The notes under the pieces were generated by a model. It worked only from the letters and a program-made list of their open reading frames with translations, did not search any database and was not told where the DNA came from. Made by a program: the position numbers and the translations under genes. From NCBI GenBank assembly GCA_044375675.1, contig JBILMD010000001.1:126396-190395 (forward strand): a DNA stretch of 64,000 nt. Reading direction: 5' to 3'. Shown in pieces: positions 2,220-57,299 of this stretch. Every line of letters starts with the position of its first letter. Positions within the stretch are counted from its first letter, which is position 1. This stretch comes from Alphaproteobacteria bacterium. Its GTDB lineage: Bacteria > Pseudomonadota > Alphaproteobacteria > JAJTHO01 > CANGYM01.

Positions 2220-3608
2220 TTAAAAATGAATAACACGACCCATGGCGTCCAGCGTGGCCTCGTGCATCATTTCCGATAACGTGGGGTGGGGGAATACGGT
2301 ATGCGCCAAATCCAGCTCTGTCAACTCCCCATTCATGGCAATGACAAAGCCCTGAATCAGCTCGGTGACTTCTGCCCCGATCAGGTGGGCCCCCAGCAAT
2401 TCACCCGTTTTGGCATCATAGATGGTTTTGATCAACCCTTCCGGCTCGCCCAGCGCAATGGCTTTGCCGTTGCCCATAAAGGGAAAACGGCCCACTTTCA
2501 ACGTATGGCCCGCCTCTTTGGCCTTGGCCTCGGACAGGCCCACACTGGCGACCTGCGGCATGGTATAGGTACATCCGGGAATTTTGGCGCGGTCCATGGG
2601 GTGAACATCGGGCTGGCCTGCCAGATTTTCCACACAAACCATGGCCTCGTGCGAAGCCTTGTGCGCCAACCACGGGCCCGCGGTGACATCCCCGATGGCG
2701 TAAACGCCGGCCTCGTCCGTTTTCAAATACCCGTCGGTGACGATGTGGCCCCGATCCAGACGAATTTTGGTTTTGTCCAAACCGATGGTTTCCGTGTTCG
2801 GCACAATGCCCACCGCCATAATGACGCGATCCACGGTCAGGGATTCTGTTTTTCCCGCTTTTTCAAAGGTCAGCGTGACATTATCCTTACCCTTATCCAA
2901 TTTGGTCAGCTTGGCGCCCACGTGGATGGTCATGCCCTGTTTTTCAAAGGTTTTTTTGGCCAGACCGGAAATCTCTGCATCCTCAGCCGGCAGGATACGG
3001 TCCATAGCCTCAATCACTGTAACCTTGGATCCCAAGGTGTTGTAAAAACTGGCAAACTCCATCCCAATGGCGCCGGATCCCACAATGGCGAGGGTTTTGG
3101 GCAGGGTGTCCTGAACCATGGCCTCGCGGTAGGTCAAAACCAATCGTCCATCCGGTTCAAACCCCGTCAACACGCGGGCCCGGGCGCCGGTGGCCAGAAT
3201 GATATGCTTCGCCGTGAGGGTTTGTTCTTTATCACCCTTCACCAAAACTTTTCCCCCGCCCAGCAGGGACCCATGGCCCGTGATGACCTCAACCTTATTT
3301 TTTTTCAGCAAATGGGCGATGCCGCCCGATAATTGTTTTGCCACGCCGCGGGATCGGGCCACGATGGCGGGCATATCAACCTTCACGTCGGCAACGCTCA
3401 GGCCGTAATCCTTGGCATGTTTGATGTGATGATACATTTCCGCGGAACGCAACAAAGCCTTCGTCGGGATGCACCCCCAGTTCAAACAAATGCCCCCCAG
3501 ATGGGTGGATTCCACCACCGCGGTTTTCAAACCCAGCTGATTGGCCCGAATGGCCGCCACATAGCCCCCCGGGCCACCCCCGATAACAATCACATCATAG
3601 TTACTCAT
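2220..3608 (-). CDS. lpdA: Dihydrolipoyl dehydrogenase (E3). True start taken at the internal Met that begins [16 protein letters not shown].
   Basis: FAD-binding GGGPGGY motif, redox-active [10 protein letters not shown] disulfide and HAHPT interface motif. ATG verified at 3608. Confidence 0.95.
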
Positions 3609-3682
3609 ACCATGCCTTTTCTTTTTGCGTGTTCGTGCCCCGTACCTTGCCACGGTTTTTCAGGGGAGGGAAGGGGGAACAA

Positions 3683-4036
3683 TCACTCTGATTTTCCTTG
3701 CAGCAAAACCTGTAGCTGTTCCAACAAAGCGGGGATGTGCAACAGAGCAACACTTAAAACAACCTCGTGGGCGATATCATCATAACCATGGGCCAGATGA
3801 TTCCTCATGCTGATGATTTTTTGCCAAGGAATTTGGGGATTTTGCTCTCTCAAGGGGGCACTGACGCGGGTGGCGGCTTCACCAAAAACATGAATTAAAC
3901 GTTGTAAAATCAATGCCGCATCAGAATCATCTTCAATACCATCCTTTCGGTAACGTTCCAATGTTTCCCCTATACGACGGCCAAAGCGGATCATATCATA
4001 CAGGGCGACGCGATCATCCCGCTGGCTTTCCCTCAT
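3683..4036 (-). CDS. hepT: HepT-like HEPN toxin (DUF86), pair 1
   Basis: R-x4-HxY HEPN motif (RNHLAHGY). Overlaps the upstream NTase gene by 4 nt. Confidence 0.8.
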   Translation of the reverse strand: MRESQRDDRVALYDMIRFGRRIGETLERYRKDGIEDDSDAALILQRLIHVFGEAATRVSAPLREQNPQIPWQKIISMRNHLAHGYDDIAHEVVLSVALLHIPALLEQLQVLLQGKSE

Positions 4037-10886: not shown

Positions 10887-11173
10887 AACTTTCCCCAAAC
10901 AAAACACGCACTTAAAAAAAGAAGCAGGGGAGGGGACAAAACCACAGCAAAGGCACCCAACAACGGGGCGCTTTTTAGGGGCTTTGATCAACATCTCGTG
11001 CGGGCTTTACGCTTTTAAACTTTTAAAAACACCAGCAGTCTGCAACGTTTTTTCAAAAACAGGAACGCTACATAGCACAGCGGGGCAGGGGAGCGCAAGG
11101 GGGTTTTTTACAATATTGAGAAAAAATGAGCGCTATCGTCCAGCAATGAAAAGGATGGGAAGTGTGATCATTT
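10887..11173 (-). promoter_or_regulatory. Candidate L10 autoregulatory leader / promoter region
   Basis: About 290 nt of untranslated sequence upstream of rplJ. A structured L10(L12)4-binding leader is expected here in bacteria generally. The structure itself was not verified. Confidence 0.3.
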
Positions 11174-12055
11174 TTAATTCAGGTTTGGGCTGCCTTTTTG
11201 GTCGCGAATATATTTGATGAATCCATATAAGTTTTCCGCATCTAGCCCATGCAACATTAAGCGAAACCCTGCTTCGAGCGTTGAAAATGGAACCATGGGG
11301 TGCTTGTTGTTCACGAGACCCATGATGAATTGCTTGTCCAACATCTTGGCGATATAGACAGCCATGGTTTCGTCCAACTGCAGAGAGTTGCTGGCACGTT
11401 CAAAGGCTTCGTTCGAAAGAAACACACCAAACAAGGGCGTATAAATTTCGATTGCGCTCTGTAGATCAAGAAAATTGTGCCATGTATCAGACAACGAGTC
11501 TATTTCCGAATCGAAATCATAAATCGCTGAAAAATCAATTTTATCAAGGGGAATAGGCTGGATAGATTTATTGTTCTTTTGCAAATAAGCACTGAGTTCT
11601 ATGATAAAATTATAAATGTTCAAATCGTGCTGAACAAACATGTTGTTTTTAAAGTCATCTATAATTCTCGGTTTTAAGGGATGGGATGTTAGCTGTCCCT
11701 CTGCAAGGTTATCATTCAAGAATCTAAGAATTTGGCTGCCTATATGAAAGTGGCGCATGATAAGATAATTTGCATCCTTGTTCACGAAATTTTTCATGCC
11801 CCATGCGATCAGGCAGTGTAATGTTTTGGGCGATGTTAATGCGTTGGGAATTAAAATACGCACTAGCCTGACTAAGGCGATAGACAAGCGTGCAAGTGGC
11901 CGAATGATCGGCAGAAGAAACGTGCGCGATCTTGTGCCGTTATTACGGAGCAGGGCTTCTTTTGCCGGTTGATCGAAAAAGGTGCTCTGATCCAAGGCCA
12001 AAGCCAACCAAGGATCGGGGTTGTTCAGGTCGTGAAGCTTGGCATCAAAAGACAT
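11174..12055 (-). CDS. Hypothetical protein of 293 aa, third gene of the KAS-III/HO-fold operon
   Basis: Long ORF, AT-richer than flanks. Its start overlaps the stop of the upstream gene (ATGA). No recognisable motif. Confidence 0.5.
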   Translation of the reverse strand: MSFDAKLHDLNNPDPWLALALDQSTFFDQPAKEALLRNNGTRSRTFLLPIIRPLARLSIALVRLVRILIPNALTSPKTLHCLIAWGMKNFVNKDANYLIMRHFHIGSQILRFLNDNLAEGQLTSHPLKPRIIDDFKNNMFVQHDLNIYNFIIELSAYLQKNNKSIQPIPLDKIDFSAIYDFDSEIDSLSDTWHNFLDLQSAIEIYTPLFGVFLSNEAFERASNSLQLDETMAVYIAKMLDKQFIMGLVNNKHPMVPFSTLEAGFRLMLHGLDAENLYGFIKYIRDQKGSPNLN

Positions 12056-12720
12056 TACGTGTTTCCCAACTCTTCCATTTGCAGCCTATACAGTCGAGCC
12101 GTGACTTTGGCGGTCTTGATAATATTTTTCCCCATATTCGGTATATCAAGAATACCTGATTGCAGCGTTTTGCTGAACTCTTCCATGTGCTCATCATCAT
12201 GCGCGGAATGATACGTAAGAAAAGCCACCTGTTTATCTTCAAGATTCAATTGCTCCTGAATACTTTTTCCCCACTGACCGGCTTTCTTCTGGCCCAGCCC
12301 TTCAATAATGAACATAGCACCTAACAGGCGAAAAGGATTTGGCTGGCTTGCATGCTGGTACATATAGGCATGTAGCGCCTCCGAACCTATGTTTTTTTCT
12401 GCGCCGCGAATTTCTTCAAGCGTGCCACCTAAAGAAATATAACTTTCTTCAAGCATGCGGTAATCTTTGTGTTCTGTAATCGCATGCTTTAAAAAAACCG
12501 AGCGTTGTTCGAGATATTCTTCATCAATACTGGAAGCGGCGCGAGCAATCCACCGCGAACCTTCTACAACCTGCTGACGGTGGTTGACCAGAAGCATTTT
12601 ATAATCCTCAAGCTGGAATTTCTTGCGGTTAATTTTATCAATCAAAGGGACCGTATCAAGGATTGTATCAAAATCAGTCCAGACCTTGAGCAGCCCGCGC
12701 ATTACTTCTTCACTTTTCAT
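12055..12720 (-). CDS. Heme-oxygenase-fold (TenA/PqqC/CADD-like) putative iron-containing redox enzyme
   Basis: About 220 aa with spaced E/H-rich helices (FLKHAITEHKDY, IIEGLGQKK, FLTYHSAHDDEHMEE), reminiscent of HO-like diiron enzymes and TenA. Family assignment is tentative. Confidence 0.5.
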   Translation of the reverse strand: MKSEEVMRGLLKVWTDFDTILDTVPLIDKINRKKFQLEDYKMLLVNHRQQVVEGSRWIARAASSIDEEYLEQRSVFLKHAITEHKDYRMLEESYISLGGTLEEIRGAEKNIGSEALHAYMYQHASQPNPFRLLGAMFIIEGLGQKKAGQWGKSIQEQLNLEDKQVAFLTYHSAHDDEHMEEFSKTLQSGILDIPNMGKNIIKTAKVTARLYRLQMEELGNT

Positions 12721-12734
12721 TACCTCACCTTTCG

Positions 12735-13859
12735 TTATACGACCTCTAGTAACATCAATCCGTTCAATCCTCGCCCGCTTTCTGGTACATGACAGAGAAT
12801 TTTCTCGCCTGATTTCAGCTTCCCGCTATAAAATAGCTCCTCAAGCATTATTAAGATAGAGGCCGTTCCTGTATTGCCCTTACTGTACAGGTTGCTGAAC
12901 CATTTTTCTTCATCTATCATTGCGCCGGCCTTTTTAAGCAACGCAATTGTTTCTTCACGCAGCGAGTGCGAGGAATAATGGCAGCATAAATGATCAATTT
13001 GGTCGAGCACAATTTTCTTTTGATCTATCAGATCTAAGTAATGAGAAATCCAGACAGGGATCATTCTTTTTAACAAATGAAAATCCTGCGCTAGGACAAA
13101 GGCACCTTCGGAAAAAGCCGCTGCGGGGCTGAGAAAACTGCTCCAAGGTTCAATCCTATCGTCAGTGCGGACACCGCCTGCTAGCATGCAGGTATCAAAT
13201 CTGTCGGCGTAAGAGCGTATGTCAATCCAGCATATTTTTAGAGATATATGGCGCGTGTTTGCCTTGCTGCCAAGCATCGCGGCCCCTGCACCATCAGACA
13301 AGGTAAACCGAAGAAAGTCTACTTCGTAAGGTAAATATCCAAGCTCTTTCACTTGTGCGGTATCTTCATAGAACCCCGGTCTGAAGTAGCGACTGGCGAA
13401 TTCGCTACCTGATACGGCGGCACAATCATGCTCGTTCGCTTTAATCTGTGTGTATACTGATTTTACAGCCATGAGAACACTGGCGCATACGCTTTGGAAG
13501 CTGGCGATTTCAATTGGGGGAAGCTTCAGATTCGCATGAACATGGGATGCCAAACCCGGCACCAGAACATCACCCAATGTTGCCGATGTGGCCAGATAAG
13601 TAATGTCATTTAGGTTAGCCTCTGATTTCCTCAGGGCTTCCTGTATGGCGATAGCAGCCATATCCGCGCTGCCGTATTGCTGAACTCCATTATCATCCAG
13701 CGCATAATAACGTGTTTTTATTTTATTTTGGCGCAAGGCGGTGCTACGGAAACGCGATGGCTTGCCGTGAATGCATCCCAGATAATTTTCCATTTGGCTA
13801 TTTGGTATGGGCTGGCCGGGCAGAAAAATGCCAAGACTGTTAATGAATACATCCCTCAT
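12735..13859 (-). CDS. 3-oxoacyl-ACP synthase III (FabH/KAS III)-like condensing enzyme
   Basis: FabH-like N-terminus, active-site Cys in SVCASVLMAV, His in HYSSHS, and Asn in GNTGTASI. Confidence 0.75.
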   Translation of the reverse strand: MRDVFINSLGIFLPGQPIPNSQMENYLGCIHGKPSRFRSTALRQNKIKTRYYALDDNGVQQYGSADMAAIAIQEALRKSEANLNDITYLATSATLGDVLVPGLASHVHANLKLPPIEIASFQSVCASVLMAVKSVYTQIKANEHDCAAVSGSEFASRYFRPGFYEDTAQVKELGYLPYEVDFLRFTLSDGAGAAMLGSKANTRHISLKICWIDIRSYADRFDTCMLAGGVRTDDRIEPWSSFLSPAAAFSEGAFVLAQDFHLLKRMIPVWISHYLDLIDQKKIVLDQIDHLCCHYSSHSLREETIALLKKAGAMIDEEKWFSNLYSKGNTGTASILIMLEELFYSGKLKSGEKILCHVPESGRGLNGLMLLEVV

Positions 13860-14010
13860 GAAAGCTCTTTTCGATTTTTTCGATTTTCAGAGAATCCGGC
13901 GATCAAATGTTACAAGCCTACTCAATTCTCAACTCTTTTTGAAGTGATTCCGTAAAGGTTAGAAACGTGGTTCCATAGAGGGGCTTGAAACTCTGTCGAA
14001 GGAGGCCTCT

Positions 14011-14637
14011 ATGGAACTGGAAAATCGTATCATCGCCATTTATCTGCGCATAGAAGAAATTTACAAAGACCTCACGGCCTTGCGCCCCAAACGCAAACGC
14101 GTCTTTAAAAAACACGCCAAACCCTGGCTGTACGGCATGAAACCCGCCGCCCCAGGCCACCTGATCCAAATCGACCATATGACTGTCAGAAAAAATGTCA
14201 TAACAATCAAACACTTCCAAATGTACGACCACGTCACCAAAACCATCCTCGCCGAGGTGTATAGCAACGCCACCAGCCGATCCGCAAAAAAATTTCTGCG
14301 TAAAATCAAAGAGGAACTCCCGTTTGCCATCGTGTCCATCCAGGTCGACGGCGGGTCCGAATTCATGGCCGAGTTCGAAGAAGACTGCCATGCCCTCGGC
14401 ATCGCTCTGTTCGTCCTGCCCCCCAAAAAACCCTAGTATAACGGGGGTGTCGAGCGCGGAAATCGCATCTTTAAAGAAGAATTCTACGCCAAAGCCGCCT
14501 ATGATTCCCTCGGACACTGCCGCGCCCTCCTCAAAACCGCCGTCCACAAATACAACACTTACCGCCCACATTATGCCTTGAAAGGATCCACACCCTCCGC
14601 GTATACAAAAACCATCCTCCTCAAGGACGCCGCTTGA
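14011..14637 (+). pseudogene. DDE (rve-type) transposase remnant: N-terminally truncated, with an in-frame amber stop at 14434-14436
   Basis: ...GHLIQIDHMTV...IQVDGGSEFMAEFEE...PKKP*YNGGVERGNRIFKEEFY...YRPHYAL. DDE integrase-core motifs split by TAG in the same frame. A GGAGG RBS lies upstream of the ATG at 14011. Confidence 0.7.
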
Positions 14638-14702
14638 TCACCATATCTGTCTCAAATGGGGTGAACTCATACACAAAAAAATCCTAGCATCCCCCCCAAA
14701 AT

Positions 14703-14751
14703 CTGTTACCTGTTACCTGTAATCTGTTACCTGTTACCTGTTACCTGTATG
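14703..14751 (+). repeat. Heptanucleotide tandem array (CTGTTAC)x7, two units degenerate. The last unit contains the argB ATG.
   Basis: ctgttac ctgttac ctgtaat ctgttac ctgttac ctgttac ctgtATG read directly from the sequence. Confidence 0.9.
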
Positions 14752-15666
14752 AAAGAAACCCACCCCCTGCGCGATGTGAACCCTGTGGCGGCCGCCAAGG
14801 CCAGCACGCTGTCCGATGCTTTGCCCTATATGCGCCAGTATGCGGGGCGCACCGTGGTCATTAAATTTGGCGGCCATGCCATGGGGGAGGAAAGCCTGAC
14901 CGAGGCCTTTGCCCGTGACATTGTCCTGATGAAACAGGTGGGCATGAACCCCGTGGTGGTCCACGGCGGCGGTCCCCAGATTGGCGCTATGTTAGAGCGT
15001 TTGAAAATCAAAAGTGAATACATTGACGGCCTGCGTGTCACCGATGCCGCCACGGTGGAGATCGTGGAAATGGTGCTGTGCGGATCCATCAACAAAAGCA
15101 TCGTCAGCGCCATCAACAGGGCAGGGGGCCACGCCGTGGGCCTGTCCGGCAAGGACGGCCAGTTGATTGAGGCCCGCAAGCTGCGCCATCGCCCCACACA
15201 AAAAACGGATTCCAACATTGAACGCCTGCTGGACTTGGGCTTTGTGGGGGAACCGACCTTTGTCAACCCCCACGTTCTGGACGTTCTGGCTGAATCCGAC
15301 ATCATTCCCGTCATTGCGCCCATTGGGATGGACCCAAACGGCCAGACCTATAACATCAACGCCGACACCGCCGCCGGTGCCATTGCTGAGGCCATGGAGG
15401 CCACGCGCCTGCTGCTGCTGACCGATGTGGTGGGGGTTTTGGACAAAGACAAAACCTTGCTGCCCAAAATCACCCTGAGCCAAGCCCAAAAAATGATCGA
15501 AAACGGCACCATCACCGGCGGCATGATTCCCAAAATCCAAACCTGCCTGCACACCATATCCCGCGGTGTCGGCGCGGCCGTCATCCTAGATGGCCGCATT
15601 CCCCACGCCCTGCTGCTGGAAACCTTCACCTCAGAAGGGGCTGGGACGATTATTATGGAGGGGTAG
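14749..15666 (+). CDS. argB: Acetylglutamate kinase
   Basis: [25 protein letters not shown]...[10 protein letters not shown]... matches the ArgB amino-acid-kinase fold from memory. Confidence 0.95.
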
Positions 15667-21910: not shown

Positions 21911-21944
21911 GGTGGTGCGTGGTGCGTGGTGCGTGGTGAGTCAT
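21891..21944 (-). promoter_or_regulatory. 17-codon His-codon-rich uORF (MTHHAPRTTHHHVLRHN) overlapping the hisH start out of frame, built partly from a (CACCACG)3 heptamer array
   Basis: Minus-sense read: ATG ACT CAC CAC GCA CCA CGC ACC ACG CAC CAC CAT GTC CTG CGC CAT AAT TGA. The hisH ATG lies inside it in the +1 frame. Confidence 0.4.
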
Positions 21945-22045
21945 CACTGGTAACAGGTCTGGGGGGGGAAATAAAGGGGGGTGGGAACATCTTTACGGGT
22001 TATCAGGGTTTATGGTATAAATTATAAACATATCAGGGTGATTGT

Positions 22046-26753: not shown

Positions 26754-27646
26754 TGGTTATGTCCCTATCGTACCGTTTGACCCTGATCAACACCGTGGAT
26801 GGCGTTTCCCCAAAGGACGCCCAGCGCGCGGCGACCTTTCTGAACACCGCCCCCCCCCACCCCTTTGGCGAAGGCCGCGCGGTGGATGTGCTTTACACCC
26901 CCGATGCCCCCACCGATGCCATGGCCTTGGCCACTGCTGTTCGGGATCTCTGGGGGGATCATCCCACGCCGTTTGATCTGTGTGTTCAAGATGCGGCGGC
27001 GCCCCGCCAAAAACGCCTGTTGCTGTCGGATATGGATGCCACCATTGTGGCCGAAGAATCGCTGGACGTTCTGGCCGATTATGCCGGCTGCGGCGAGGCC
27101 GTGGCCACCATCACCGCGCGGGCCATGCGGGGGGATCTGGATTTTCACGCCGCTCTGCGGGAACGTGTGGCTCTGCTGCGGGGGCAACCTGCCACGCTGA
27201 TTGATCGGGCTCTATCGGATATGACCCTGTCCGCGGGGGCCAGCGATTTGGTGACAACCATGCGGGGCTGGGGGGCCAAAACCATCCTGATTTCCGGCGG
27301 ATTCACCCCCTTTACCCAGCACGTGGCCGCTGTGGTGGGCTTTGATGACGCGGTGGGCAACACCTTGGGCCTTCATGATGGGCACTTCACGGGCGACGTT
27401 CTGGGCCCCATCGTGGATAAACACGTCAAACAGCAAACCCTGCTTGAGCAGGCGAGTGCCCTTAACCTCTCCCCCGCCGATACCTTGGCCGTGGGGGATG
27501 GGGCCAACGATCTGCTGATGCTGCAGGCCGCCGGCCTCGGCGTCGCCTATCGCGGCAAGCCCCTGCTGAAACAATCCATGCCCACGTGGGTGGACATCAG
27601 CGATCTAACCGCACTGCTGTATATGCAGGGCTGGGGCAACAAATAA
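26750..27646 (+). CDS. serB: Phosphoserine phosphatase (HAD family)
   Basis: HAD motifs LLLSDMDATIV, ILISGGFTP and AVGDGANDLLM. Confidence 0.85.
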   Translation: MMVMSLSYRLTLINTVDGVSPKDAQRAATFLNTAPPHPFGEGRAVDVLYTPDAPTDAMALATAVRDLWGDHPTPFDLCVQDAAAPRQKRLLLSDMDATIVAEESLDVLADYAGCGEAVATITARAMRGDLDFHAALRERVALLRGQPATLIDRALSDMTLSAGASDLVTTMRGWGAKTILISGGFTPFTQHVAAVVGFDDAVGNTLGLHDGHFTGDVLGPIVDKHVKQQTLLEQASALNLSPADTLAVGDGANDLLMLQAAGLGVAYRGKPLLKQSMPTWVDISDLTALLYMQGWGNK

Positions 27647-27657
27647 ACCCCGCATCA

Positions 27658-27727
27658 TTTTTTTTCCCAAAACACAAAAAAATGTGACAAATGGCACGGC
27701 ACGGCACGGCACGGCATAATGGGAGGG
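27658..27727 (+). promoter_or_regulatory. Repeat cassette copy 1: T-run + CCCAAAACACAAAAAAATGTGACAAATG + (GGCAC)4 + GGCATAATGGG
   Basis: Read directly. Contains a TGTGAC -35-like or CRP-half-site-like element and a CATAAT -10-like element separated by the pentamer microsatellite. Confidence 0.5.
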
Positions 27728-30995: not shown

Positions 30996-31073
30996 TTTTT
31001 TTTCCAAAAACACAAAAAAATGTGACAAATGGCACGGCACGGCACGGCACGGCACGGCACGGCATAATGGGGG
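30996..31073 (+). promoter_or_regulatory. Repeat cassette copy 2 with (GGCAC)6
   Basis: Same cassette as copy 1. The pentamer occupies 31031-31060. Confidence 0.5.
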
Positions 31074-31107
31074 CTCTTTCACAAAGTCCAACAAGGACTT
31101 TTTTCAC

Positions 31108-31996: not shown

Positions 31997-32078
31997 TTTT
32001 TTTCCCAAAACACAAAAAAATGTGACAAATGGCACGGCACGGCACGGCACGGCACGGCACGGCACGGCATAATGGGGG
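31997..32078 (+). promoter_or_regulatory. Repeat cassette copy 3 with (GGCAC)7
   Basis: Same cassette. The pentamer occupies 32031-32065. Lies in the divergent region between the vapD-partner gene and a small plus-strand ORF. Confidence 0.5.
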
Positions 32079-32112
32079 CTGTTTCATAAAGTCCCAAGGA
32101 CTTTTTCAGCCA

Positions 32113-32460: not shown

Positions 32461-32486
32461 GGGGGCCGTTGGCCCCCCTTTTTTTT
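32461..32486 (+). terminator. Intrinsic terminator GGGGGCC-GTT-GGCCCCC + T8
   Basis: Perfect 7-bp GC stem, 3-nt loop and a T8 run. Third of three consecutive hairpins after ORF 32113-32358. Confidence 0.55.
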
Positions 32487-32527
32487 CCCAAAACACAAAA
32501 AAATGTGACAAATGGCACGGCACGGGG
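32479..32527 (+). repeat. Repeat cassette copy 4: truncated, (GGCAC)2, no CATAAT. Fused to the GGGGCCTCTCC module.
   Basis: T8 + CCCAAAACACAAAAAAATGTGACAAATGGCACGGCACGGGGCCTCTCC. Confidence 0.6.
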
Positions 32528-32537
32528 CCTCTCCTTC

Positions 32538-32572
32538 CCTGTCACCTGTCACCCGTCACCTGTCACCTGTCC
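32538..32572 (+). repeat. Heptanucleotide array (CCTGTCA/CTGTCAC)x5, imperfect, abutting the rplY stop
   Basis: cctgtca cctgtca cccgtca cctgtca cctgtcc. One base different from the argB array unit CTGTTAC. Confidence 0.85.
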
Positions 32573-32576
32573 CCCC

Positions 32577-52060: not shown

Positions 52061-53167
52061 ATGGACTTTTTGCTGCAATACGATGCGATTGCGTTTATTT
52101 TGGTTCTAACCTCCCTGATTTATGTGCACGAGCTGGGACATTATGTCGTGGCCCGTATGAACGGCGTTCGGGTCGAGGTCTTTTCCATAGGCTTTGGCCC
52201 CGAAATTTACGGATGGCGCAACAAACATGGCACCCACTGGAAAATTTCCCTGATACCCTTTGGCGGGTATGTCAAAATGTTCGGGGATACCAACATTGCC
52301 AGTGCCCCCATGGGTACGGACGATGGCATGACGGCCGAGGAAAAAAAGGTCGCCTTTCCCTATAAAAAACTTCACCAACGGGCCGCTGTGGTGGCCGCCG
52401 GACCCATTGCCAATTTTTTGTTTGCCATTGTTGTGTTTGTGGGCGTTTACGCCACGCTGGGTCAGGTATATGCCCCCCCCGTGGTGGGTGATTTTACCGA
52501 TGATTCCGCCGCCAAGGGCCATCTTCAGGTGGGAGACCGCATTGTGTCCATCAATGGTAAGGCCATTGAAAGCTTCTCTGACATCCAGAACATGACCCGT
52601 CTTTATGATCGGCCAGAGCCCATGATCATTACCTATGAACGTCAGGGCGTTCAAAACACCGTGTCCATCCAACCGCGACGCGAAAAAATCACCGACAATC
52701 TGGGCCAAACTAGCCAGATTGCCCTTTTGGGCATCACCACCAACGAAAGCGACCTCAGGGATTTACCCTTGCATCGGGCCGTTCCTGCCGCCTTCGAGGA
52801 TACATGGGCCATCGTCACAGGCACCATGACGGGGTTATGGCAAACCATCACCGGCGTGCGTTCGGTCAAGGAACTGGGTGGCCCCGTTCAAATTTATCGC
52901 ATTTCTGAAAAGGTGGGCGAGCAAGGCATCATCGCTTTGGTTATTTTTGCGGCACACCTATCCATCAGCCTTGGCCTGATCAATTTGCTTCCGGTACCCG
53001 CCTTGGACGGCGGCCATTTGGTGTTTTATTTTTTTGAGGCCCTTTTGGGAAAACCCCTGCCCCAAAAAGCCCAAGAAATCGGGGCCTTCGCCGGCGTCGC
53101 CATGATTTTGATGCTGGTGGTTGTGGTCACTTGGCATGATGTCCAGAGGATTCTGCAAGCCGGATAA
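52061..53167 (+). CDS. rseP: RIP zinc metalloprotease RseP (site-2 protease)
   Basis: HELGHYVVAR HExxH motif, a PDZ-like middle domain, C-terminal TM helices. Confidence 0.9.
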   Translation: MDFLLQYDAIAFILVLTSLIYVHELGHYVVARMNGVRVEVFSIGFGPEIYGWRNKHGTHWKISLIPFGGYVKMFGDTNIASAPMGTDDGMTAEEKKVAFPYKKLHQRAAVVAAGPIANFLFAIVVFVGVYATLGQVYAPPVVGDFTDDSAAKGHLQVGDRIVSINGKAIESFSDIQNMTRLYDRPEPMIITYERQGVQNTVSIQPRREKITDNLGQTSQIALLGITTNESDLRDLPLHRAVPAAFEDTWAIVTGTMTGLWQTITGVRSVKELGGPVQIYRISEKVGEQGIIALVIFAAHLSISLGLINLLPVPALDGGHLVFYFFEALLGKPLPQKAQEIGAFAGVAMILMLVVVVTWHDVQRILQAG

Positions 53168-55838: not shown

Positions 55839-57299
55839 ATGAAAAAAAGTGTTGTACTTTTGGGGTTCTATCTGTGGGGGGCGCATAGTGCCAACGCGGA
55901 ATCCTTGGATGGTTTTTTTCAGGATCAGGCACCTGCCCAGCAACCTGCTTCCCAAGACACCCCCAGCGACGATACCCCGAAAACTGTGGCCAATAACGGC
56001 CCCACGGTGATCAAGCCGCAAGTTTTGTATTTGGAGGATTTAAATCCCCCTGAAAAACCCAAAGTCAACCCGCCCGCAGCCACATCTACCCCCGCGGCCA
56101 GCCTAGAGGCAAAAGCGAAAACGCCCTCCGCGGCTGAGCCCTCAGCCACCCCCGTGGCCTTGCCACCCCCCCCCCTTACCCCCGCCAAACCAACGGCAGG
56201 GGCGGCCTCTGGTGCAGGAAAAATCAAAAAAGAGCCTTTGCCCAAATCCACTGCGCAGACCCCAAAAGCCGCCCCTGTGGCCCCTGCTGCCGCTGCGGCC
56301 GCCGCCCCAACGCAGGCCCCCGTTGTACAAAAATCATTCATTCAGAGCCGATCCACACGGGCAGAAGAGACACAAAACAATCTTCCCGAATCTTCCCAAA
56401 CCCTGTCGTCTTTTCAGGAACAGCATCAGGGACAATACGCCCCGTTTGCCACGCAAACCTCTCGTCAGCAGGCCGCCCACAGTCTGGTGACACAGGCCAA
56501 AAACGAAGGCCGCACGTATCCCGCCGGTCTTGATCCCTTTGTTATTGAATTTGACCAGACTTTCGCTGTTTTATCCCCCAACCGCGCCATTCGGGATCTG
56601 TACAAAACCGCCACCATCACGCTACCCACTGTGGAAGATCCGTCCCCATTGTCCTTTAACGCCACCCCCACGATGCCCGCCGCCCCTGTGGTGACCCTTG
56701 CGACGCCTGCGCCAATTCAGGCCGTCACAGCCCCCGAAACTGAAACAGAAAAAACCCCTGATATCCAGATGTCTCCCCAGCCCGTGGTTGACGCAGTGCC
56801 CGAAACACCCCAAAAACCCATGGAATCAACCAAAGAGGTTGCCGCCCTGGCCCCCGAAACCCCAAACACCCTTGTCTTAGAGGACACCGCCCCGACCAGA
56901 ACCGAAACGCCCCGTCTGGCGGACCGCGAAGGCCCCACGACCTTGGCCACGGTTATGGTGCCAGAAACGGCGGAAATGCTGGATAATAAAACAAAAGCCC
57001 TGCTGGATCAGGTGGCCGCCGCGTATCATGACGGCAGCCTCAGGGTCATTCAGATTACCGGATACGTCAACACCCGCTCTGGCCAAAATGAAGATGTTCG
57101 GGGCTATACCCACATTCAATCCTTGGGTCGCCGCGGTGCTGCCTTGGTGGTGGATTATTTAAAGGGGAAAAACGTCCCTGAATCCGCCATGGCCTACCGC
57201 ATTATCCCCACCAGCACCATTGCACTTCAGAATCCGTTTTATGCCTCTCTTTCCACCGAAAACACCCTGCGGCTGGATATTGTGGGCGGGCGGTCGTAA
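55839..57299 (+). CDS. Secreted Pro/Ala-rich protein with a C-terminal OmpA-like domain
   Basis: Signal peptide, roughly 350 aa of low-complexity P/A/T-rich sequence, then an OmpA-C-like tail (SLGRRGAALVVDYLKGKNVPESAM). Contains a C9 tract. Confidence 0.6.
   Translation: MKKSVVLLGFYLWGAHSANAESLDGFFQDQAPAQQPASQDTPSDDTPKTVANNGPTVIKPQVLYLEDLNPPEKPKVNPPAATSTPAASLEAKAKTPSAAEPSATPVALPPPPLTPAKPTAGAASGAGKIKKEPLPKSTAQTPKAAPVAPAAAAAAAPTQAPVVQKSFIQSRSTRAEETQNNLPESSQTLSSFQEQHQGQYAPFATQTSRQQAAHSLVTQAKNEGRTYPAGLDPFVIEFDQTFAVLSPNRAIRDLYKTATITLPTVEDPSPLSFNATPTMPAAPVVTLATPAPIQAVTAPETETEKTPDIQMSPQPVVDAVPETPQKPMESTKEVAALAPETPNTLVLEDTAPTRTETPRLADREGPTTLATVMVPETAEMLDNKTKALLDQVAAAYHDGSLRVIQITGYVNTRSGQNEDVRGYTHIQSLGRRGAALVVDYLKGKNVPESAMAYRIIPTSTIALQNPFYASLSTENTLRLDIVGGRS

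Follow-up and report, generated by a model that had tools for sequence, protein, structure and literature searches.

A strain-variable heptanucleotide array abuts the argB start codon of an uncultured freshwater alphaproteobacterium and lacks a Shine-Dalgarno site

The window, that is, the whole 64-kb stretch of DNA analysed here, comes from an uncultured, free-living freshwater alphaproteobacterium and carries argB, a housekeeping gene with an essential biosynthetic function, whose start codon is directly preceded by an array of heptanucleotide repeats (Table 1). Homologues with 70-74% identity to ArgB, from Azospirillum, Telmatospirillum and uncultured Rhodospirillales-like alphaproteobacteria, are named acetylglutamate kinase. 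Since the downstream mscL gene lies on the opposite strand, argB is monocistronic. Between the ATG at 14749 and the in-frame stop that precedes it there is no other start codon, and the ATG places 17 residues ahead of the AKTLSEALPYM motif, compared with 15-20 in the homologues, while the next in-frame GTG would leave 8. A preliminary description of this DNA had considered that translation might start at a codon further downstream, but the homologue N-termini and the in-frame stop favour ATG 14749, which is judged from these comparisons to be the true argB start.

Read in heptamers up to this ATG, the array consists of AATCTGT TACCTGT TACCTGT AATCTGT TACCTGT TACCTGT TACCTGT, seven units and 49 nt in total, with its last base at position -1 of argB. 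In an alternative register it is a (CTGTTAC)n repeat that begins at 14703 and comprises five perfect CTGTTAC units, one CTGTAAT variant and a final CTGT. The array is real and far beyond chance: TRF assigns it a period of 7, 6.6 copies, 89% matches and a score of 78, and the two-unit pattern CTGTYACCTGTYAC (at most one mismatch) occurs seven times in the window versus 0.03 times expected from shuffles, with all seven matches falling within this array or within another one, at 32538-32572. An assembly artefact can be dismissed, as the argB array recurs in contigs assembled independently from several samples and three data sources. It is interrupted, the longest perfect run being 3.6 units, and its composition is skewed, with 7 G in 49 nt (one per unit) and 67% pyrimidine. 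No 4-nt run from AGGAGGT occurs in the 50 nt before the ATG. Related species carry AGGAG, GGAG or AAGGA ahead of the argB start, and Shine-Dalgarno sites are plainly visible at many other genes of the window, in contrast to argB. The preliminary description was thus right that tandem heptamers run up to the argB start and that no Shine-Dalgarno sequence lies in or after them, but it was partly inaccurate in having the last unit supply the start codon, since the ATG matches the expected TAC at none of the three bases and TRF ends the array at 14748.

Table 1. Features of the window that bear on the argB and hisH arrays, with the argB array alleles
Feature	Coordinates	Strand	Evidence or occurrence
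Strain-variable insert, ~3.56 kb	11110..14672		strain comparison, Pfam
Conserved flank ACAAAAAAATCCTAGCATCCCCCCCAA	14673..14699	+	identical in window, L001-L004 and L095; one substitution in L097
Heptanucleotide array	14700..14748	+	seen also in L001-L004 and L095-L097
Allele A, 7 units, sequence as in window			window, L001, L003, L004
Allele B, 6 units, AATCTGT TACCTGT TACCTGT CATTTGT TACCTGT TACCCGT, exact 2 x 21-nt structure			L002, L095, L096
Allele C, 6 units, AATCTGC TACCTGT TACCTGT CACCTGA TTCCTGT TACCTGT			L097
argB, acetylglutamate kinase, 305 aa	14749..15666	+	Pfam AA_kinase 1e-51; named homologues
Heptamer array (CACCACG)3 CACCACC	21911..21938	-	adjoins hisH ATG (21910)
(CTGTCAC)n array, ~4.9 units	32538..32572	+	TRF; identical in L098 and L099

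The strain comparison rests on nine independent metagenome contigs that cover the argB array and were obtained through exact-protein look-ups and one metagenome scan; the scan, run on JGI metagenomes with a degenerate pattern of the ArgB N-terminus, yielded one further contig (L095). Read from the assemblies, and thus as consensus sequences, the nine contigs contain three alleles of 7, 6 and 6 units (Table 1), which all end at -1 of the ATG and all lack a Shine-Dalgarno sequence. The variation in unit number between strains that the preliminary description had anticipated is therefore found, with alleles of 7 and 6 units, but the array exists as a small number of stable haplotypes, not as a hypervariable series. 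Indeed, allele A is common to contigs that differ at 13 of 918 argB positions (1.4%), and allele B is carried by contigs with 3 (0.3%) and with 19 (2.1%) differences from the window over the same positions. Allele C belongs to a contig that has diverged from the window by 7.5% in argB, and the two 6-unit alleles differ by substitutions: compared by eye, B and C show 6 mismatches over the 42 array positions and one in the 27-nt flank. Since the array diverges faster than its flank, its exact sequence is only weakly constrained. One of the allele B contigs, the JGI contig L096 (region 3600-3921), encodes an "80% identical" ArgB (P0002), and its argB matches the species for about 600 nt and then shows about 70 differences per 100 nt. 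Judging from this pattern, L096 is probably a chimeric assembly, or else a recombinant; we rejected the notion that it represents a sister species, as the last third of its argB is foreign. Beyond the species, no heptamer array was found upstream of argB in 80 loci of other species (at most 72% ArgB identity), which were drawn from a one-genome-per-species collection and among which the species itself was absent, and on this comparison the argB array is specific to this lineage.

Further upstream, the strains differ by the presence of a large insert, whose genes are DUF6999, Haem_oxygenas_2-like and KAS-III-like according to Pfam and which also holds the remnant of an rve-type transposase (14011-14637) with a frameshift close to a CCCCCCAAAAAA run. 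A T7-ACA7 palindrome marks the site of the insert, which separates the rplJ upstream region from argB. The insert is present in most strains (the window, L001, L003 and L085-L093) and absent from L002, L004, L094, L095 and L097, such that the conserved flank and the array are the sole upstream DNA common to strains with and without it. Where the insert is present, the original upstream DNA beside argB is reduced to 76 bp (14673-14748), the array included, and the argB promoter must therefore reside either in that stretch or in the insert.

A second amino-acid gene in the window, hisH, likewise has a heptamer array abutting its ATG, which lends substance to the earlier suggestion that such repeats recur at genes of amino-acid biosynthesis. 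The hisH array has one G per unit, ends at -1 and comes without a Shine-Dalgarno sequence, and its unit is unrelated to that of argB. Among ten contigs that encode identical HisH proteins (window 21911-21945; L101-L109), the array comprises 3, 4 or about 5-6 units, some of which are G/T variants, and in two of these contigs the DNA upstream of the array is altogether different. The preliminary description had pointed to a His-rich uORF (MTHHAPRTTHHHVLRHN, ended by a stop codon) at this position. It is a by-product of the repeat, as neither its frame nor its presence is conserved among strains: three units put the uORF in frame with hisH, and the upstream ATG is missing in the two strains with a different upstream region. 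A frame that changes with unit number, and the lack of the uORF in two strains, show that no conserved leader peptide is encoded here, and a His leader-peptide reading was rejected. In sum, the window contains three heptamer arrays, and two of them (those of argB and hisH, the start-abutting arrays compared within the 64 kb) end at -1 of a start codon, a placement that is unlikely for randomly placed intergenic repeats. No heptamer doublets were found near other gene starts in the window beyond the three arrays.

The third array, with the unit CTGTCAC, exists where it had been reported, but its neighbour is not the 5' end of an amino-acid operon. The array starts 5 nt beyond the stop codon of rplY (encoding L25; 32577-33176, reverse strand), a gene that follows prs, in an intergenic region that lies between convergent genes and contains terminator-like hairpins. 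The sequences on either side of it bear no relation to those around the argB array. Read in the sense of the rplY mRNA, 32538-32576 is (ACAGGTG)n and presents four to five tandem AGGTGA-like motifs, which resemble Shine-Dalgarno sequences, immediately after the stop. Similarly, the lone CTGTTAC that had been noted upstream of hisH is present (21950-21956, reverse strand), but it carries no significance at the frequency with which such heptamers occur by chance, the window containing 15 copies of CTGTYAC, 8 of them inside the two arrays, versus 6.8 expected. Neither a shared regulator motif nor a mobile microsatellite, the two origins put forward for the CTGTYAC family, is supported. The hisH unit is CACCACG, the CTGTCAC array stands 3' of a gene amid unrelated flanks, and (CTGTYAC)3 is no commoner in viral contigs than control heptamers, with 33 occurrences in 2.9 million contigs versus 6 and 25 for two composition-matched controls. 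We therefore rejected CTGTYAC as a special or mobile repeat.

These arrays reside in a genome that is clearly rich in simple repeats, an excess that was measured in the 64-kb window. Six arrays with a period of 4-9 nt and at least 3.5 copies occur in the window, corresponding to 9.4 per 100 kb, or about 11 times the 0.86 per 100 kb of related alphaproteobacterial loci (930 kb in total), and G/C homopolymers of at least 7 nt number 28 in 64 kb versus 25 in the 930 kb of relatives, or about 16-fold more, although the comparison is rough because the G+C content differs. Examples of the homopolymers are found at 26850-26858 (C9), 56166-56175 (C10) and 52473-52480 (C8); several lie inside long ORFs, where they could be frameshift-prone sites or sequencing-error hotspots. 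Heptamer arrays also occur in two of the related-species loci, as (AGGCACG)4.4 in a genome bin of a lake alphaproteobacterium (L006, 2399-2429) and as (GCAGTAA)6.6 in a Hyphomicrobium genome bin (L069, 2959-3004). The window further contains a dispersed intergenic element, TTTTTTTCCCAAAACACAAAAAAATGTGACAAAT(GGCAC)nGGCATAATGGG, at 27660-27725, 30996-31075, 32003-32080 and 32478-32530. Three of these copies hold (GGCAC)n arrays with n of about 4.8, 6.8 and 7.8, so that copy number differs between paralogous copies, and these three copies lie upstream of small ORFs without a Pfam match. The fourth copy (32478-32530) is truncated, with n = 2, and runs into the (CTGTCAC)n array. No exact match to the element was found in viral contigs. 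Its role may be that of a promoter or leader cassette in which the pentamer tract varies.

What might such an array do in front of argB? The leader from 14674 to 14790 has a minimum free energy of -9.5 kcal/mol and folds no better than shuffled sequences (z = +0.33). The region from -30 to +30 of argB, at -2.1 kcal/mol, is the second weakest among 33 gene starts in the window, with hisH being the seventh weakest (-4.6 kcal/mol), and the corresponding regions of alleles B and C are at -1.6 and 0.0 kcal/mol. With Rfam, no match reached the gathering score in the window and none reached E <= 10 in 14300-15000. A consensus scan for a sigma-70-like promoter near argB found no -35/-10 pair, and none flanking the array. 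The operator of ArgR is an 18-bp imperfect palindrome, WNTGAATWWWWATTCANW, usually present in tandem and overlapping the promoter of an arg gene; with at most three mismatches, no such ARG box was found in 14000-15000, and the window as a whole has seven matches versus 7.2 expected by chance. A leaderless argB mRNA appears unlikely as well, since the hexamers at -13 to -6 (ACCTGT, CCTGTT and CTGTTA) are, by eye, unlike a -10 box.

With moderate confidence, we propose that the argB array is a slippage-generated repeat that now makes up the final 42-49 nt of the argB 5' leader, where it stands in for a Shine-Dalgarno site. Replication slippage would have created the array and would keep changing its unit number, as suggested by the existence of 6- and 7-unit alleles and by the density of arrays in the window. 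We infer that the array is transcribed and that it has a role in translation initiation. With one G per unit and a preponderance of pyrimidines, it is predicted to keep the argB start region nearly free of secondary structure, and because such a leader would be accessible and single-stranded, initiation at the ATG probably does not depend on a Shine-Dalgarno sequence, that is, on pairing with 16S rRNA, and is probably assisted by ribosomal protein S1. The gain or loss of a unit would alter leader length only, and hence would at most tune expression rather than switch it. The position of the array supports this proposal, as it ends at -1 in all three alleles, including that of the lineage with 7.5% divergence in argB, and so do the weak predicted folding, the hisH array, which is likewise G-poor and ends at -1, and the repeats of similar geometry known from Beggiatoaceae. 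Against it, no sigma-70-like promoter was found in the region, the sequence is under weak constraint, as would equally be expected of a neutral repeat, and the low degree of structure could follow passively from the low G content without having been selected.

It is possible, though somewhat doubtful, that the array is simply a neutral microsatellite, an irrelevant product of slippage within a leader that happens to lack a Shine-Dalgarno site, and that it is now decaying by point mutation. The roughly 11-fold and 16-fold enrichments of the window in short arrays and G/C homopolymers would fit such an origin, as would the interruptions in the arrays, the finding that alleles differ mostly by substitutions, the count of 0 out of 80 related species with an array before argB and the occurrence of triple CTGTYAC units in many unrelated viral contigs, about as often as control heptamers. 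However, an end exactly at -1 in three alleles, and again at hisH, is improbable for repeats placed at random in intergenic DNA. Moreover, the array has been kept at 42-49 nt across 7.5% argB divergence, with no Shine-Dalgarno sequence having appeared, and, however the array arose, this leader has to support the translation of an essential biosynthetic gene.

A more ambitious variant of our proposal is that the lineage uses locus-specific heptamer arrays in place of Shine-Dalgarno sequences on both argB and hisH, as leaders of tunable length whose unit-number alleles, segregating in natural populations, would act as heritable rheostats of enzyme levels. Since the unit sequence differs between the two genes, such a mechanism would need to rely on periodicity and on lack of structure rather than on a sequence-specific factor. 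We regard this generalization as unlikely at present.

The preliminary description had seen in the array the classic geometry of a contingency locus, and its interpretation is supported only in part, the contingency reading weakly so. Such a locus would be a hypermutable array whose unit number varies within populations and thereby sets argB expression. Unit polymorphism does exist at argB (7 versus 6), hisH shows more of it (3, 4 and about 5-6 units before an identical protein), and in the hmw genes a larger number of 7-bp repeats correlates with lower transcript levels (PMC2424069). However, the array lies wholly upstream of the ATG, and a change in unit number therefore cannot shift the reading frame. 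Nor would slippage alter the start context as had been argued, because a homogeneous array leaves the sequence beside the ATG unchanged when a unit is gained or lost. Hypermutability finds little support in an array that is interrupted, with at most 3.6 perfect units, and in the persistence of the same allele at 1.4-2% argB divergence: only three alleles occur in nine contigs, with A shared by contigs 1.4% apart and B by contigs 0.3% and 2.1% from the window. Finally, argB is a housekeeping gene rather than a surface or host-interaction gene. A role of the array as such a rheostat is thus quite improbable. Least probable, and indeed very unlikely, is that the heptamers act at the DNA level, as transcription-factor sites or as part of the argB promoter shared with other CTGTYAC sites: strains with the insert keep only 76 bp of original DNA, in which the promoter must lie unless it is in the insert, and three units make 21 bp, or two helical turns, with allele B having an exact 2 x 21-nt structure, but there is neither a sigma-70-like hexamer pair nor an ARG box near argB, ARG box matches in the window are at chance level, the CTGTCAC array lies 3' of rplY with unrelated flanks, single CTGTYAC heptamers occur at chance frequency, the hisH unit is different and the argB units are poorly conserved between alleles.

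Among known systems, the closest precedent for a start-abutting leader repeat is the set of TAACTGA repeats of Beggiatoaceae, with which the argB array agrees in geometry but not in sequence. These repeats, described from marine Beggiatoaceae and also from some cyanobacteria and Bacteroidetes, occur mostly as forward sets before a start codon (MacGregor, 2015; PMC4679880). Their largest class ends 1 nt upstream of the start, and there are "split" sets with a related variant unit; about 10% of the repeat-containing intergenic regions have a Shine-Dalgarno sequence, the downstream genes include those for ribosomal proteins, and a translational role has been proposed (PMC4679880). The argB array is likewise composed of tandem 7-nt units in forward orientation, with one G per unit, and ends 0-1 nt before the start; it overlaps the expected ribosome-binding site, has no Shine-Dalgarno sequence, forms a "split" set with a variant unit and precedes a gene with a housekeeping function, as do some of the TAACTGA sets. 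However, Beggiatoaceae use one heptamer, TAACTGA, genome-wide, whereas the unit is TACCTGT at argB and CACCACG at hisH; the host here is an alphaproteobacterium, and 6-7 units correspond to the long end of the Beggiatoaceae range (2-6).

More generally, long simple sequence repeats with 5-11-nt units, among which heptamers are commonest, are sporadic and lineage-specific and are attributed to slippage (Mrazek et al., 2007, as summarised in PMC4679880). The argB array resembles this class in its beyond-chance length and in its repeat-rich surroundings, an excess shown for the window; as far as that summary describes it, the class is a statistical one with no positional rule, whereas two of the three heptamer arrays here abut start codons. 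Looser is the resemblance to the 7-bp tandem repeats in the promoters of Haemophilus influenzae hmw1A and hmw2A (PMC2424069) and to the AGAT repeats in the 5' UTR of Moraxella catarrhalis uspA2 (cited in PMC4679880). In the accounts given in these sources, the hmw and uspA2 repeats also consist of short tandem units in strain-variable number; they lie between promoter and start codon, where they work like a volume control for expression and not like a frame switch. However, they are described there as pure, hypervariable arrays of 9-28 units before surface adhesins of host-adapted pathogens, whereas the argB array has 6-7 interrupted units and three alleles and precedes a housekeeping gene in a free-living freshwater host. 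On/off contingency loci, with a repeat that is in the reading frame or located between the -35 and -10 elements and that serves a surface, host-interaction or restriction-modification gene, have none of these features in common with the argB array. Heterocystous cyanobacteria reportedly carry STRR heptanucleotide repeats, with units such as CCCCAGT; these resemble the argB array in being intergenic tandem heptamers at many loci but differ in unit and phylum, and they are not known to be associated with start codons.

Heptamers that abut a start and displace the Shine-Dalgarno site are known from sequence analysis alone, and argB and hisH add an alphaproteobacterial example at housekeeping genes, in which natural alleles comprise 6 and 7 units at argB and range from 3 to about 6 at hisH. 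Should the arrays prove functional, the fact that their units differ would argue for a structural or periodic property and against a sequence-specific binding factor, and the question would become testable with simple reporter constructs. If they are neutral, the locus would simply indicate that the genome is rich in repeats and would be of use for strain typing. Another case of a heptamer in a gene leader is provided by a group of related phage contigs (L118, L123, L127, L138 and L139), which are unrelated to the window and in which (CTGTTAC)3 occurs after a conserved AAAATAAAAGAATATAGAAATGTTA flank and upstream of a Shine-Dalgarno sequence and an ATG. In L138 and L139 it lies about 10 nt from the Shine-Dalgarno sequence and about 20 nt from the ATG.
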